DNA of 64,000 bases from a virus (taxonomy: Duplodnaviria; Caudoviricetes), in the IMG/VR virus record IMGVR_UViG_3300033066_000802, positions 90,612 through 154,611 of that record; one strand, written 5' to 3'. The notes below the pieces were generated by a model that saw nothing but the letters and a program-made list of their open reading frames with translations, did no database searches and was not told the origin of the DNA. Both the position numbers and the translations under genes were made by a program. Positions 28,679-38,812 of this stretch are shown here, in pieces; position 1 is the first letter of the stretch; every line of letters starts with the position of its first letter.

Positions 28679-31447
28679 ATGGCTAATAAAATACCAGTTG
28701 AAATAAGGGCTAAAGAAATACTATTAAATTATAATGGAACAAACGATTACCTTCTCGAATTAAAGTCGACTTTAATAAACAAAAAGACTTTACCATTTAC
28801 TCCAAATCTATGTACCTATATCATTAATAATCACAAAGTTAAGCCAGTAATAATTAATAACAAATTTTTATTACATAAGAGTTTAAGAAAATATTTACAA
28901 TTACACTATAAATTACAATTTGAACCAGAATTTATCTACGTCAATAAACTATTGACAAGGAAAAAAGATAATTTACATATTTGGGGATGTTTTTCAGATG
29001 ATTGTAAGTATTATTTTTCAATCTTCATTGATAAGAATGCAATGAAGAAGACTAAGAATGTTGAATTACCATCTTTTGATGATTATAAAAGACCGCCACT
29101 ACCACACCAATTACCAGCTATAAAAACATTATTAGAAAATGATAAATTTATTCTGGCTGATGATATGGGTTTAGCGAAAACAAGTTCAGCTATTGTTGCT
29201 GCAATTCTTGGAAACTACCAAAGAATTCTTGTTGTATGTCCAGCCACACTTAAACTAAACTGGAAAAAAGAAATATCCATATATGATGACCCAAGTAACA
29301 TATCTGTTATTGAGGGTTCGGATTTTACATTCAAAAAATGGACAATCATAAATTACGATATACTTAAAAACTTCCACTTTTTAAAGGAAAAGGGTGAGGA
29401 TGAGGTTAAACCGTCAATAATAGATTTTTATAAATATGACCTTATCATTGCTGATGAGTGTTTTCCATATAAAACTTTAGTGGATACCGATAAAGGTAAA
29501 TTAGAAATTGGTAATATAGTTGAAAACTGTTTAGATGTTAAAATATTATCATATAATTTAAAAAATTCTAAATTAGAATACAAACGAATTAATAGATGGA
29601 TTAAAAAAGAAAGTAACACTATATTAAAAATATCACTTCAAAACGAAAAATTTATAGAGTGTACACCTAATCATAAAATATATGTTAAAGATAGGGGTTA
29701 TATTAGAGCAGATAAAATATTAAAAAATGATGAATTATATACATTGCAAAAACCCAGTGACAAAAAATTGTCAATTCTGTGGAAAACAGATGATTCTAAC
29801 AGGGAAACGGAAGAAAAATCGATTCTGCGATACTGTTTGTTCAGCAAAATGGAAAATGAACCAACCAGAGATAAAAAAGAAAATTCACAATCCAGAAGTT
29901 TACAAAAAAGCAAAAATATCAAATATAGAAAATTACAAGAAAAATCCACAACGTGCAAAAGATTCATCAGATCGTATGAAAAAAAACAACCCAATGATGA
30001 ATATAGAAACGTTGGAGAAAATGAAAAATTCATTGAAAGGGAAAACCTTTTTATCAAGAGGTGGGAACGGAAAAACAACAATACAAGAACAAAAAATGAA
30101 AAATATTTTGGGTGTTGGCTGGGAACTACATTACGCAATAAAAACATCGATGGTAAAAACAATGTTCAAATCCTTACCGCCAGCATATCAAGTAGATTTA
30201 GGAAACGAAGATTTAAAAATCGCAATAGAGGTGGACGGAAAAACACATCTAACAAAAAAATGGAAATTTCTGGACAAAAGAAAAACGGAAGTATTAGAAG
30301 CGTTAGGGTGGAAAATATTGAGATTTTGGAATCAGGATGTGGACGATCAAATAGAAAATTGTTTGACGAAGATAAACGAGTTTATAACATCGAAGTAGCC
30401 GATAACCATAATTATTTTGCTGATAATATATTAGTTAGTAATTGTCATTATTTGAAAAACGCTTCAGCTAATCGTACCAAATTATTCAACGACTTTGCTT
30501 TAAAAATCAATACCAGGTGGCTTTTAACAGGTACACCTATTACAAGTAAACCAATTAATTTATATAATCTTTTATTATTATGTGATTCACCTTTGGCTAA
30601 TAATTGGGTTAGTTATGTTAGAAGGTACTGCGCTGGTAAACAATTCAATAGAAAGGGTACCACCCAAAAATATTGGGTAACTGATGGAGCAACAAATTTG
30701 GAAGAACTAAATGATTATATTAGTGATATATTATTACGTAGGTTAAAAAAAGATTCTGTTGAGTTACCACAAAAAACGGTTAAACCAATCTTCTTACCGT
30801 TATCCTCATCAAAAAGGTATAATGAATACATGATTGAATACCAGGAATGGTATAATGATATGGTTGAAAATGGTCTTGAGCCAAAACCAACGGAACATCT
30901 GACCCAACTGATTAAAATCAGACAATTATTATCTGAGGATAAAATGAGTAATACAATTAAGATTGCAGAAGATCTCATTGAAGAAGGTCATAAGGTAATC
31001 ATATTTTCTTGTTTCACCAACACCATACGTGGTATTCATGAGCATTTTGGTAAAGAATCCGTATTGATTGATGGTGCTATAAACTCTAAAAATAGAGATA
31101 TTGCTGTGGAAAAGTTCCAGAATGATAAGAAAGTCAAAGTATTTTGTGGTAATCTTATTGCCGCTGGCGCTGGCATTACTTTAACCGAAGGTACAATTGT
31201 AATATTTAATGACCTTGATTGGTTACCAGGAAACCATGCCCAGGCGAGTGATCGAGCCTATAGAATAGGTCAAACAAAAGATGTACATATTATATATATG
31301 TTGATTGATGACACATTGGATAATATGATGTATACAAGACTTCAAGAGAAAATAAAGGAAATCAATACTGTTATGGGTGATGAACATACGGAAGATGTAT
31401 CACTACTTAATGCTGTGGTTAGTAATTTATTAGTGGAAAGTAAGTAG
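28679..31447 (+). CDS. SNF2/HARP-like superfamily 2 helicase containing an intein
   Basis: LADDMGLAKT (I), VVCPA (Ia), DE|CH (II, split by intein), LTGTP (III), GAGITLT (V), QASDRAYRIGQ (VI). Confidence 0.93.
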   Translation: MANKIPVEIRAKEILLNYNGTNDYLLELKSTLINKKTLPFTPNLCTYIINNHKVKPVIINNKFLLHKSLRKYLQLHYKLQFEPEFIYVNKLLTRKKDNLHIWGCFSDDCKYYFSIFIDKNAMKKTKNVELPSFDDYKRPPLPHQLPAIKTLLENDKFILADDMGLAKTSSAIVAAILGNYQRILVVCPATLKLNWKKEISIYDDPSNISVIEGSDFTFKKWTIINYDILKNFHFLKEKGEDEVKPSIIDFYKYDLIIADECFPYKTLVDTDKGKLEIGNIVENCLDVKILSYNLKNSKLEYKRINRWIKKESNTILKISLQNEKFIECTPNHKIYVKDRGYIRADKILKNDELYTLQKPSDKKLSILWKTDDSNRETEEKSILRYCLFSKMENEPTRDKKENSQSRSLQKSKNIKYRKLQEKSTTCKRFIRSYEKKQPNDEYRNVGENEKFIERENLFIKRWERKNNNTRTKNEKYFGCWLGTTLRNKNIDGKNNVQILTASISSRFRKRRFKNRNRGGRKNTSNKKMEISGQKKNGSIRSVRVENIEILESGCGRSNRKLFDEDKRVYNIEVADNHNYFADNILVSNCHYLKNASANRTKLFNDFALKINTRWLLTGTPITSKPINLYNLLLLCDSPLANNWVSYVRRYCAGKQFNRKGTTQKYWVTDGATNLEELNDYISDILLRRLKKDSVELPQKTVKPIFLPLSSSKRYNEYMIEYQEWYNDMVENGLEPKPTEHLTQLIKIRQLLSEDKMSNTIKIAEDLIEEGHKVIIFSCFTNTIRGIHEHFGKESVLIDGAINSKNRDIAVEKFQNDKKVKVFCGNLIAAGAGITLTEGTIVIFNDLDWLPGNHAQASDRAYRIGQTKDVHIIYMLIDDTLDNMMYTRLQEKIKEINTVMGDEHTEDVSLLNAVVSNLLVESK
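29459..30442 (+). mobile_element. intein (328 aa) inserted in the helicase DECH motif
   Basis: Block A CFPYKTLVDT, block B CTPNHKIY, block F VYNIEVADNHNYFA, terminal VSN followed by +1 Cys; excision restores IIADECHYLKN. Confidence 0.93.
29727..30398 (+). CDS. DUF559/Vsr-like homing endonuclease overprinted in the +1 frame inside the intein
   Basis: 223 aa with its own ATG and TAG; CQFCGK...FCDTVC zinc motif, NPM/NUMOD-like linker, VDLG...IAIEVDGKTH...DKRK...LEALGWKILRFWN. Confidence 0.9.
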   Translation: MMNYIHCKNPVTKNCQFCGKQMILTGKRKKNRFCDTVCSAKWKMNQPEIKKKIHNPEVYKKAKISNIENYKKNPQRAKDSSDRMKKNNPMMNIETLEKMKNSLKGKTFLSRGGNGKTTIQEQKMKNILGVGWELHYAIKTSMVKTMFKSLPPAYQVDLGNEDLKIAIEVDGKTHLTKKWKFLDKRKTEVLEALGWKILRFWNQDVDDQIENCLTKINEFITSK

Positions 31448-35698: not shown

Positions 35699-38600
35699 AT
35701 GACAGAATTTAGTGTACCTATTGAAACTATTGAACGATTTTTATCGGGACATGGTGAGGAAAAATATATTGTAAATGTTGAGTATGATATGAATACTAAT
35801 TTAATCTATAAGATTAAAGATGTACCAGGTCAAGGTATAACAATAGAAACCGAACCATTAAAAGCCTTTATGTGGATTAAAAACCTTAATGAGGTTAAAA
35901 AAATATGTCGTTTTTATGGTAATAATGATCTTTTGATTAAGAAAAAAATGACCGAATATGGTATTGAGATTAAAACATTACGTCATGATAATCACCCAAG
36001 ATTAGTACAGGGTTTTAATTACTTAGTTAAGTGTAACCAAGGTTATAAAAGAATGGTTGCATTCTTTTCCGATGGTGGTATCAATATTTATAATAAATAC
36101 GAAAAAAGAATTAACATCCCGTCATATTTTAATATCTTACCACCAGTTGAACAATACTTTATTGGTACAGGTAATAGATTATACAAAGGATTCGAATCTT
36201 ATGATGAAATTAACAAGTTTATATTTGACTTGGAAACCACAGGATTAGATCCAAATATAAATAAAATATTCCTTATTGGTATTAAAACAAATAAAGGTTA
36301 CGAGAAATTGATTGAATGTAATCTTGAAGATGAAGAATCTGAAAGACAAGGTATTATACAATTTTTTGATGAAATTAGTCAAGTTAAACCAGCAATCATA
36401 GCTGGATACAATAGTGCAAATTTTGACTGGTATTTTATCTTTAAAAGGTGTCAGGTACTTGGTTTAGATATTGAAACTATCGCAAAGACGCTTAAACCAG
36501 ATCAAAAAATATGGGTTCGAGAATCTATGCTTAAACTCGGAAATGAGGTTGAAACATATATCCAAACTAATATGTTCGGATATAGTATTATTGATATTAA
36601 TCACTCAACTCGTAGAGCGCAAGCTATTGATTCGGATATGAAGTATACGAAATTAAAATATGTGTGCAAATATAATGACGTAGCGAAACCTAATCGTGTA
36701 TATATTGATGGTGAGAATATAGGTAAATATTGGGAAAGTAATAATAAATTTTATTTTGATAATAAAAGTGGGTCTTATACTAAGACAATGCCACGTATTG
36801 AATATATGGATTTTATTACTCGTAAAATCGTGCAAGAAAACCCAGATAAAATATTCGTATTTGGTGATAATGACTTACGTGAAGGGTATGGTGGGCAAGC
36901 TAAAGAAATGCGTGGTGAAAAAAACACAATTGGTATCGTAACTAAGAAAGAGCCATTTTCAAATGAAGATTCTTATTACACAGATGATGAATTTGAATTA
37001 AATAAAAAGAAAATTAATATTGATATTAAAAATATCATTAATGAAATTAAAAAAGGTAAAACCATCGTATTTCCAACTAACGGAATAGGTACTGGTTTAG
37101 CTAAATTAAAAGAAAAGGCACCAAAAACATATAAATTTCTTCAGGGTTCCATTAACGCATTAAAAATGTACGCTGAAAGTTATATTGAGTGCAATGGGAA
37201 ATATATTGTTGAGCGCTATCTTATGGATGACCTTTGGGAAACATTAGAAGTTGATAATATATATAACCAATCTTCATTTATGTTGGCTAAGTTGATTCCA
37301 ACAACATATCAACGTGTATCTACAATGGGTACCGCTGGTTTATGGAAAATGTTGATGCTAACCTGGTCATACGAAAATGATCTCGCAATTCCAATACCTG
37401 ATACTAAACGTGACTTCGTTGGTGGTTTATCTCGCTTATTTAAAGTTGGGTTCTCAAAGATACTCAGAAAGATGGACTATTCATCACTGTACCCATCAAT
37501 TCAATTAGCACATGATGTATTCCCAACCTGTGACATATCTCATGTATTGAAGTCTTTCTTAAAATATTTCCACTCTGAACGATTCAAAGCTAAAAACTTA
37601 GCTAAGAAATATGGTAAAGCTGGTGATAAACAAATGAAGAGTTTCTATGAGAGAAAACAACTACCACTGAAGATATTCATCAACTCAATGTTTGGTGCCC
37701 TTGGTGCGCCAAATGCATTCCCTTGGGCTGAAATGGATGTTGCAGAAGGTATTACGACCAGAGCAAGACAATACCTAAGAGCTATGGTTAAATTCTTTAT
37801 GAGGTATGGTTATGATCCACTTGTACTTGATACCGATGGTGTAAACTTTATGGCACCTAAAGGTGGAGAACATTTTACTTATATTGGTCTTGGAAATAAT
37901 GAGGCAGTTGAGGCTGGTAAAACATATACTGGTGTTGAAGCTGTAATCGCTGAGTTTAATGATTTGTATATGAAAGGTGAAATGGCTTTAAGTTTAGACG
38001 GTACTTGGCCCTCAACTATTAATTTAGCAAGAAAAAATTATGCAATGTTAGAGGATAGTGGTAAAATTAAATTAACGGGAAATACCATAAAATCTAAAAA
38101 AATGCCTGTATACATTGAAGAATTTATTGATAAAGCAATGATATTACTTTTAAATGAAAAAGGTGCTGAATTTGTAGATTATTATAATGATTATGTGAAA
38201 AGAATCTATTGTAAAGCCATACCTCTTGCCAAAATAGCGACAAAAGCCAGGGTAAAAAAGAGTATACAACAATATGTTAATCGTGGTTTAAATAAAAATG
38301 GGAAACCATTACCTAAACAAGCTCATATGGAATTAGTGTTACTGAATAATATGAGTGTTAACCTTGGCGATACCTTATTATATGTAAATACGGGTACGAA
38401 AGCATCACATGGTGATGTAAAAATGGATAAAACTGGTAAAATATATGCGAGTCTAATTAAATCCGATGATCTTGAACAAAGACCAGATATGTTAGGTGAT
38501 TATAATGTAGCCAAATATTTAGATATGTTCAATAAGAGAATTAAACCACTTTTAGTTGTTTTTTCAGAGGATGTTAGAAAAGGTTTGATTATTAAAAACC

Positions 38601-38812
38601 CAGCCGATAAGAAAGATTGGTTGAATAATGAACTTAATATGATTAATGGTGTACCTTACAAGGAAGCTGATCAAGATACTATTGAAGAATTGTTTACCCC
38701 ATCAGATCTTGAAAAAGCTTATTGGGCTAAATTTGATTATGAACCAGATATCTGGTTCCAAGAAAATATATTATTTACTGTTCCAGGGTTAGGAAAAACT
38801 GTTCCCATCTAA
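35699..38812 (+). CDS. polB: family B DNA polymerase with an inserted macro-like domain
   Basis: ExoI FDLETTG, ExoII GYNSANFDW, ExoIII YLMDD; region A DYSSLYPS, B KIFINSMFG, C DTDG, KNYA. Confidence 0.95.
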   Translation: MTEFSVPIETIERFLSGHGEEKYIVNVEYDMNTNLIYKIKDVPGQGITIETEPLKAFMWIKNLNEVKKICRFYGNNDLLIKKKMTEYGIEIKTLRHDNHPRLVQGFNYLVKCNQGYKRMVAFFSDGGINIYNKYEKRINIPSYFNILPPVEQYFIGTGNRLYKGFESYDEINKFIFDLETTGLDPNINKIFLIGIKTNKGYEKLIECNLEDEESERQGIIQFFDEISQVKPAIIAGYNSANFDWYFIFKRCQVLGLDIETIAKTLKPDQKIWVRESMLKLGNEVETYIQTNMFGYSIIDINHSTRRAQAIDSDMKYTKLKYVCKYNDVAKPNRVYIDGENIGKYWESNNKFYFDNKSGSYTKTMPRIEYMDFITRKIVQENPDKIFVFGDNDLREGYGGQAKEMRGEKNTIGIVTKKEPFSNEDSYYTDDEFELNKKKINIDIKNIINEIKKGKTIVFPTNGIGTGLAKLKEKAPKTYKFLQGSINALKMYAESYIECNGKYIVERYLMDDLWETLEVDNIYNQSSFMLAKLIPTTYQRVSTMGTAGLWKMLMLTWSYENDLAIPIPDTKRDFVGGLSRLFKVGFSKILRKMDYSSLYPSIQLAHDVFPTCDISHVLKSFLKYFHSERFKAKNLAKKYGKAGDKQMKSFYERKQLPLKIFINSMFGALGAPNAFPWAEMDVAEGITTRARQYLRAMVKFFMRYGYDPLVLDTDGVNFMAPKGGEHFTYIGLGNNEAVEAGKTYTGVEAVIAEFNDLYMKGEMALSLDGTWPSTINLARKNYAMLEDSGKIKLTGNTIKSKKMPVYIEEFIDKAMILLLNEKGAEFVDYYNDYVKRIYCKAIPLAKIATKARVKKSIQQYVNRGLNKNGKPLPKQAHMELVLLNNMSVNLGDTLLYVNTGTKASHGDVKMDKTGKIYASLIKSDDLEQRPDMLGDYNVAKYLDMFNKRIKPLLVVFSEDVRKGLIIKNPADKKDWLNNELNMINGVPYKEADQDTIEELFTPSDLEKAYWAKFDYEPDIWFQENILFTVPGLGKTVPI

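Follow-up and report, generated by a model that had tools for sequence, protein, structure and literature searches.

In the replicative family-B DNA polymerase (PolB) of a jumbo-size phage we found an additional domain, DUF7831, which is inserted in frame into the proofreading exonuclease between its motifs ExoII and ExoIII. The gene is located on the window analysed here, a stretch of 64,000 nucleotides which corresponds to positions 90,612 to 154,611 of the IMG/VR record IMGVR_UViG_3300033066_000802 (Duplodnaviria; Caudoviricetes). Profile comparisons and structural models suggest that DUF7831 very probably represents a trimmed macrodomain of the DarG/TARG1 class. With a probability of about 0.4, we tentatively propose that the insert acts as a DarG-like hydrolase, which would strip single-stranded DNA of ADP-ribose at the replication fork as an accessory counter-defence.

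A DUF7831 domain within the proofreading exonuclease

The polymerase matched the Pfam family DUF7831 (PF25176) with amino acids (aa) 368–482, which cover profile positions 2–116 of 118, and the score of 154.6 bits was far above the cut-off of 27. The E-values of 1.2e-45 within the whole polymerase and 2.7e-47 with the insert alone are far beyond chance. The insert also matched phrog_2072, a family of unknown function (E 4e-18), and it keeps all 13 family-invariant residues of DUF7831; it resembles the stand-alone proteins and polyvalent-protein modules of DUF7831/phrog_2072 as a bona fide full-length member. Alignment with insert-less relatives delimited the true extra segment to approximately aa 362–497. 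Its breakpoints are sharp, on the left after a conserved ...G.Y and on the right about 10 residues ahead of the ExoIII helix, in a region which aligns with residues 307–315 of KOD-type PolBs. The distance between ExoII and ExoIII is 263 aa in this polymerase and 145–147 aa in insert-less relatives, i.e. about 118 aa fewer.

An initial annotation of this DNA, made from its letters only, had described a block of about 125 aa between ExoII and ExoIII without intein termini. Both statements hold: the open reading frame (ORF) is continuous across the domain (Table 1), no intein, Hint or endonuclease family was matched by the 1037-aa polymerase in Pfam, and the insert begins with MPR and ends with ALK, so that the features of an intein are absent. 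The motifs quoted there, FVFGDN, GYGGQA and GIGTGLA, are present and turned out to be the most conserved positions of the DUF7831 family. Further polar residues invariant among 63 homologues are R42, E44, N46 and D66. No significance could be demonstrated for the methionine (aa 364) that had been regarded as the block's own start.

The remaining polymerase was assigned by Pfam to DNA_pol_B, DNA_pol_B_exo1 and RNase_H_2 and matched phrog_262 (DNA polymerase) in PHROGs with E 4e-47; archaeal PolBs are its closest solved relatives. It contains the elements of a proofreading family-B enzyme, namely DxE of ExoI, D of ExoII and YxxxD of ExoIII together with the polymerase motifs A, B and C. As the key residues of exonuclease and polymerase are invariant in 24 relatives, the insert-bearing polymerase looks fully functional.

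Homologues of the insert were found as separate proteins. The polymerase matched PolBs of the cultured Salinibacter and Nostoc/Anabaena phages in two pieces with aa 364–495 skipped, and just these residues matched hypothetical proteins that are encoded separately in phages of, among others, Caulobacter, Rhizobium and Ruegeria. A large protein collection contained many stand-alone DUF7831 homologues of 117–160 aa, mostly about 120–135 aa, and an alignment with related phage PolBs demonstrated the absence of the insert from sister polymerases. The likeness to small stand-alone phage proteins, which the initial annotation had taken as a sign of a captured gene, is thus borne out, and these sequence comparisons support the view that the insert is a copy captured from a stand-alone phage gene family.

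In a library of cluster representatives we detected 2107 DUF7831 matches, some of them embedded in proteins of 2,000–6,700 aa, and in BFVD the fold is represented in phages, among giant viruses in Tupanvirus, Hyperionvirus and Yasminevirus, and also in crAss-like phage proteins of very large size. DUF7831 elsewhere is mostly a free-standing, terminal or tandem module, whereas the insert is nested in a folded domain. One other nested case was observed, the metagenomic protein P0357 (693 aa), in which DUF7831 lies within an XRN 5'–3' exonuclease between XRN_N (aa 1–234) and XRN_M (aa 508–689); it represents a second example of DUF7831 inserted inside a nucleic-acid enzyme. A tandem duplication with two DUF7831 stretches (E 1e-68) is found in P0242 (300 aa).

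Relationship of DUF7831 to macrodomains

Scans of the 63 homologues against Pfam, PADLOC and NCBIfam (E ≤ 10) revealed no match to the Macro family, PF01661 included. The only notable rows were a ThsA macro match (E 0.037) and a lead to the A1S_2505 family phage non-structural protein (NCBIfam NF049995), to which a protein-language-model search led as well. We gathered A1S_2505 members from bacterial genomes and IMG/VR and checked the link in both directions. Comparison of DUF7831 with A1S_2505 by hhalign gave a probability of 94.7% and E 5.6e-8 with 54 sequences, and 87.8% over 79 columns with 4 sequences; weak reciprocal matches between the two families were also obtained with hidden Markov models. 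The A1S_2505 family in turn aligned with a DarG macrodomain family, built from DarG of enteropathogenic Escherichia coli (EPEC), with E 1.4e-4 over 101 columns. In reversed and block-shuffled controls, the real hhalign score was reached in none of 40 per comparison.

The AlphaFold2 model of A1S_2505 (predicted local distance difference test, pLDDT, 93.6) matched DarG of Mycobacterium tuberculosis (5m3i) in VIA-align (VIA) with Z 10.7 and a root-mean-square deviation (RMSD) of 2.4 Å over 111 residues, and the top 24 rows were all macrodomains. Foldseek returned almost exclusively macrodomains among the first 50 rows for this model (TARG1: E 2e-3, prob 1.00). Judged by the model, the A1S_2505 family clearly belongs to the macrodomains of the DarG/TARG1 type. 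It shares with DUF7831 a size of about 120–135 aa and the motif order FVFG[SD]N, Gly loop, PTK and IG.GLA, but it is a separate family and nearer to canonical macrodomains. No Pfam model exists for A1S_2505, the Asn and Lys are conserved, and at least 443 relatives are present in IMG/VR.

The AlphaFold2 model of the insert itself (pLDDT 95.8) showed four DSSP strands and three main helices. An exhaustive VIA search of about 48,000 chains with this model placed macrodomains at 12 of the top 13 positions, including Poa1p (Z 6.2), M. tuberculosis DarG (Z 6.1) and TARG1 (Z 5.7), with RMSD values of about 3.5 Å over 103–109 of 126 residues. In a second structural look with the same tool, TARG1 (4j5q) came first with Z 6.5 and 3.5 Å over 104 residues. 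The chain from DUF7831 through A1S_2505 to DarG, together with the fold match of the model, leads us to regard DUF7831 as a trimmed macrodomain with considerable confidence. Its core is without about 30 residues between Asn and Lys and without at least two canonical strands.

Other assignments were dropped. Tyrosine phosphatases, which formed the best Foldseek rows (E about 0.1, TM about 0.36), were considered noise because their VIA score was only about 4. For an SLOG/LOG fold, considered on account of a PGGxGTxxE-like motif, no LOG structures were among the structural matches and the SLOG domain of ThsA reached only Z 4.1. Searching PDB sequences with the DUF7831 profile (hmmsearch) yielded only spurious triosephosphate isomerase matches.

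The chained alignment allowed us to compare individual residues. FVFGDN of the insert corresponds to FVFGSN of A1S_2505 and VNTVN of DarG, GI.TKK to AIPTKD and NFPTKQ (the PTK motif of DarG), and GIGTGLA to IGCGLAG and LGAGNGG. N391 and K416 thereby fall on N26 and K84 of DarG in the numbering of the EPEC reading frame, which equal N22 and K80 of Thermus aquaticus DarG if the protein begins at the fifth codon. The latter two are active-site residues of DarG, and in AdfM of phage PhiKZ the exchange of the equivalent Asn (N23A) lowers removal of ADP-ribose from DarT2-modified DNA (PMC13309987). According to the alignment, the insert retains the positions of the DarG catalytic Asn (N391) and Lys (K416) and of both Gly-rich loops.

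DarG (T. aquaticus 5M3E, M. tuberculosis 5M3I, EPEC) is the best structural class for the insert model, with these catalytic positions and loops aligned through the profile chain. The insert differs from it by the missing PF01661 match, the shorter distance from Asn to Lys and the smaller number of strands. Compared to the complete DarTG system, it comprises the macro-like core only, without the C-terminal DarT-binding domain and without an adjacent DarT gene, and it is embedded in a polymerase. Human TARG1/OARD1 (4J5Q, 4J5S, 2LGR) is likewise a small, minimal macrodomain, but its identity with the insert is only 15%. TARG1 presumably relies on a Lys/Asp pair, whose Asp would correspond to Ala in GLA of DUF7831.

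Such divergence could also mean that the insert is a macro-derived hydrolase or binder for another nucleic-acid adduct or nucleotide instead of ADP-ribose, with new chemistry on a trimmed scaffold, which we consider rather unlikely. The shortened core without a PF01661 match, the fusion of DUF7831 to DUF488-N3a and the family's own invariant residues D27, Q37, R42, E44, N46 and D66, which were not mapped to DarG residues, are in line with this explanation. However, the conserved Asn and Lys and the two Gly loops are the ADP-ribose-contacting elements of DarG-type macrodomains, and the fusion partners of DUF7831 belong to the network of nicotinamide adenine dinucleotide (NAD) and ADP-ribose.

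Gain, decay and loss of the inserted domain

We classified the state of the insert in the best 119 polymerase relatives (clusters). It is absent from 39 of them and present in 80, which together with the polymerase of the window amounts to 81 carrier clusters. The spacing between ExoII and ExoIII in carriers is mostly 255–266 aa, and 227–250 aa in five decayed carriers; outgroup phage PolBs contain only a short loop at the insertion site, as do archaeal PolBs. All 13 family-invariant residues are retained in 64 of the 81 carriers, down to a polymerase identity of 48%, whereas 10 carriers retain 6–10 of them and 7 are decayed with deletions.

Pairwise identities were compared between the insert and the polymerase regions. 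Among intact lineages the insert reached 0.59, close to the N-terminal, exonuclease and C-terminal regions (0.55–0.61), with 0.72 for the palm. Among partial lineages it reached 0.64 versus 0.79–0.90 for the polymerase regions, and among decayed lineages 0.24 versus 0.47–0.59. These values demonstrate purifying selection on the insert in lineages with intact motifs and relaxed selection in the others.

A tree of the polymerase without the insert columns, rooted on three distant phage PolBs, contained intact carriers in all three basal ingroup lineages. As intact carriers occur in every basal lineage, the simplest history is one ancient gain, after which the insert was cleanly deleted twice and decayed at least six times; the root is tentative owing to the long outgroup branches. 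The tree of the domain did not reject a single origin, and all carriers share one insertion site. According to the initial annotation, its proposal would fail for an insert that is a universal part of this clade with a structural role. This applies by half: the insert seems to go back to the ancestor of the clade, yet losses and decays have occurred repeatedly.

We also asked where else these phages carry the domain. All 10 IMG/VR records with an insert-bearing polymerase hold exactly one DUF7831, the polymerase copy, and a separate DUF7831 was found in none of 36 IMG/VR records of phages with an insert-less polymerase, including a 317-kb genome rated 100% complete. As insert-less relatives have no copy in trans, the function appears to be accessory and not a requirement of the replisome that is supplied in trans. 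Slow evolution of the intact inserts, together with repeated decay and loss elsewhere, is in keeping with a counter-defence module of an accessory kind.

Two further explanations are disfavoured by these data on selection and loss. In one of them the insert would now be mainly structural or regulatory, e.g. a docking surface for a replisome partner, and catalysis would be irrelevant. This would agree with the 17 of 81 lineages which have lost the Gly-loop motifs but still contain a segment of domain size at this position, and with the apparently ancestral state of the insert. We nevertheless judge it improbable: no structural constraint is visible in decayed lineages, where the insert falls so far below the polymerase body in identity, the domain was cleanly deleted twice and not replaced by a separate copy, and the residues kept in 64 clusters are active-site-like. 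In the other explanation the insert is selfish or neutral and of no benefit for the phage, which we regard as very improbable. Repeated decay and loss would agree with it, and inteins and homing elements abound in this genome and in related ones. Intein, Hint and endonuclease features are missing from the insert, though, and its common site, the single origin that was not rejected and a purifying selection which in 64 clusters equals that on the rest of the polymerase speak against a neutral insertion.

Some polymerases of the clade carry additional elements. P0173, a relative of 1392 aa, contains a 360-aa intein in motif C (DTDG) beside a decayed DUF7831 insert, and the insert-less polymerases P0202 and P0204 (1067 aa) have about 110 extra residues near the equivalent of aa 969 and 24 near aa 911. 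A short connector (..KFPDT) of insert-less polymerases resembled a remnant of the APKT tail of the domain in an alignment with MAFFT --auto; the resemblance was gone with L-INS-i and the idea was dropped.

Possible function and genomic context

ADP-ribose lesions on DNA block replication, and phages escape by polymerase mutations or by free antitoxin mimics (PMC13309987; PMC11825919; PMC11481870); polymerase mutations are known as an escape from DarTG2 (PMC13309987). Stand-alone phage macrodomains such as AdfM remove the marks set by DarT2 (PMC13309987). In the mechanism we propose for the insert, the putative macrodomain lies in a surface loop just ahead of the ExoIII helix of a replicative PolB of a jumbo-phage clade. 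There it would bind ADP-ribose and might hydrolyse ADP-ribose–base adducts on the single-stranded template, most likely thymidine-ADP-ribose made by DarT2-type defence toxins. Acting in cis at the replication fork, the stalled enzyme itself could thus remove the lesion which stalls it, and the role of the domain would be that of an accessory counter-defence and not of a structural replisome part.

A close functional parallel is AdfM (PhiKZ gp104), a DarG-like phage enzyme with N23 and K78 in its active site, which was proposed or shown to free phage DNA of thymidine-linked ADP-ribose (PMC13309987). AdfM is canonical, stand-alone and imported into the phage nucleus, whereas the insert is a divergent mini-version fused into the polymerase. 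The macrodomains of alphavirus nsP3 and coronavirus nsp3, which are among the structural matches, are also tied to viral replication machinery and directed against host ADP-ribosylation. They differ from the insert in that they occur in animal RNA viruses, concern protein ADP-ribosylation and form separate polyprotein domains instead of inserts in a polymerase fold.

Gene fusions provide additional hints. DUF7831 is fused to NADAR and cpYpsA SLOG in P0245, to DUF4326 and NADAR in P0303 and to DUF488-N3a, and further to RecD/Pif1-type superfamily 1 helicases (P0255), DprA and a MazG-like domain. SLOG, NADAR and DUF4326 form the partner set reported for viral Macro domains (Iyer et al., PMC9503650, section 3.7.4), and we counted this agreement in favour of an ADP-ribose eraser. 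Pyrinomonadaceae encode large proteins with the order YpsA SLOG–DUF7831–DUF488. In these bacteria a locus is conserved, in which a 717-aa ORF without Pfam match and a 75-aa zinc-ribbon ORF precede a protein of at least 950–1200 aa composed of YpsA SLOG, DUF7831 and DUF488/DUF488-N3a.

The same partners point to another possible substrate. Along the lines of a second idea in the initial annotation, the insert may process or sense soluble molecules of the ADP-ribose type, such as NAD-derived immune signals, ADP-ribose-1''-phosphate or O-acetyl-ADP-ribose, with the polymerase as a carrier or as a ligand-regulated enzyme. The recurrent fusions to NADAR, SLOG (YpsA, cpYpsA, YAcAr) and DUF4326, partners tied by Iyer et al. 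mainly to low-molecular-weight derivatives of ADP-ribose (PMC9503650, sections 3.4 and 3.7.4), are compatible with such a role. So are the stand-alone copies of DUF7831, which are located amid small early-type or nucleotide-metabolism genes. Three observations, however, make this explanation not very likely in our opinion. Convenience of expression can hardly account for an insertion that was retained so long at the same site inside a folded exonuclease domain, other DUF7831 fusions are with DNA or RNA enzymes (superfamily 1 helicase, XRN, DprA), and DarG and TARG1, the closest structural relatives, act on macromolecular ADP-ribose.

Several results weigh against the insert as an eraser of ADP-ribose on DNA. 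The resemblance to macrodomains that had been noticed at first is carried by the VIA matches to TARG1, DarG and Poa1p and by the A1S_2505 chain, but neither by the direct hhalign comparison of DUF7831 with the DarG family, which was not significant (E 0.28) though it paired the same motifs, nor by Foldseek alone, which gave no match of the DUF7831 model in the PDB at E ≤ 0.001. The Z of about 6 obtained with VIA is among the values that the tool rates as common. With about 30 residues missing and only four strands, the adenosine pocket may differ from that of canonical macrodomains. The motifs are decayed on a retained scaffold in the 17 lineages mentioned above, and the frequent fusion to domains processing small ADP-ribose-type molecules or nucleotides suits a soluble substrate equally. 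No gene for DarT or another ADP-ribosyltransferase (ART) was seen beside bacterial DUF7831 copies in the small sample examined, and we found no paper naming DUF7831.

A point in favour comes from the phage itself. Its record also encodes a stand-alone NADAR protein, and AdfN, an anti-DarT1 factor, has the NADAR fold (PMC13309987); we therefore counted this gene for an eraser of ADP-ribose. NADAR occurs in only one of 47 related records, namely that of this phage, and neither PF01661 nor A1S_2505 was detected in any of the 47 records of the phage group.

One can speculate further, and with more doubt, that the mini-macrodomain on the exonuclease domain clears template bases of ADP-ribose where the active site stalls or ahead of it, that the replisome would thereby be intrinsically resistant to DarT-type DNA ADP-ribosylation, and that in phages and giant viruses DUF7831 and A1S_2505 together constitute a large branch of DNA de-ADP-ribosylases which has gone unrecognised. 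Phage macrodomains which erase DarT marks have been described only just now and only as free proteins (AdfM). A macrodomain counter-defence enzyme would be of a known kind; its miniaturised form nested in a replicase would be new, and we found no description of a macrodomain inside a family-B polymerase in the literature. If our proposal is true, two routes of escape from DarTG2, the free eraser and the polymerase mutation, would be united in a polymerase that carries its own eraser, and this would represent a third route in addition to point mutations of the polymerase and free mimics of the antitoxin. It would also be a rare example of a replicative polymerase whose fold harbours a repair or counter-defence enzyme. 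Two orphan families, DUF7831 (more than 2,000 cluster representatives) and A1S_2505 (hundreds of matches in IMG/VR), would gain a testable function and named putative catalytic residues, and the repeated decay and loss of the insert would amount to a natural experiment on the circumstances in which the function is worthwhile. New in the present analysis are the A1S_2505 bridge with its residue-level mapping, the quantified history of decay and loss, the finding that insert-less relatives have no trans copy, and the NADAR gene that this phage carries as well.

Table 1. Features of the polymerase gene and of its insert, and the NADAR gene of the same record. Positions are those of the window unless given with a record prefix.
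Feature	Position	Strand	Remarks
Family-B DNA polymerase gene	35699..38812	+	single unbroken frame, 1037 aa
ExoI FDLETTG, aa 176–182	36224..36244	+	D177, E179 invariant (24-sequence polymerase alignment)
ExoII GYNSANFD, aa 236–243	36404..36427	+	F242, D243 invariant (24-sequence alignment)
Clade-specific segment FDNKSGSY, left junction	36755..36778	+	directly upstream of insert; kept with or without insert; not in outgroup phage PolBs
DUF7831 insert, aa 364–489	36788..37165	+	PF25176, between ExoII and ExoIII
Loop-1 region FVFGDN...GYGGQA, including N391	36854..36901	+	G26, D27, N28, G33, G36, Q37, A38 invariant (63 homologues)
IVTKK, including K416	36935..36949	+	K53 invariant (63 homologues)
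Loop-2 GIGTGLA	37082..37102	+	G101, G103 invariant (63 homologues)
Right junction YIECNGKY, then ExoIII helix YLMDD (aa 507–511)	37181..37231	+	Y507, D511 invariant (24 sequences)
Polymerase motif A DYSSLYPS, aa 593–600	37475..37498	+	D593, S596, L597, Y598, P599 invariant (24 sequences)
Polymerase motif C DTDG, aa 711–714	37829..37840	+	D711–G714 invariant (24 sequences)
Stand-alone NADAR protein, same record	G000:C1:3925-4362	-	163-aa frame, E 7e-52; about 86 kb ahead of window start

The IMG/VR record comprises 154.6 kb and was estimated by CheckV to be about 52% complete, which indicates a genome of jumbo size. All polymerases of this jumbo-phage clade, insert-bearing and insert-less alike, are extended by about 45 aa around the insertion point (window 36755–36778 and 37181–37204; ..YYFN..G.Y ... 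Y.E..G.YIV), and this extension is present neither in the PolBs of the Salinibacter and Anabaena phages nor in archaeal PolBs. The genes near the polymerase encode an intein-bearing helicase, several unknown proteins and a glycosyltransferase. A DNA helicase gene (phrog_62, window 28679–31447) contains an internal ORF in another frame at 29727–30398.

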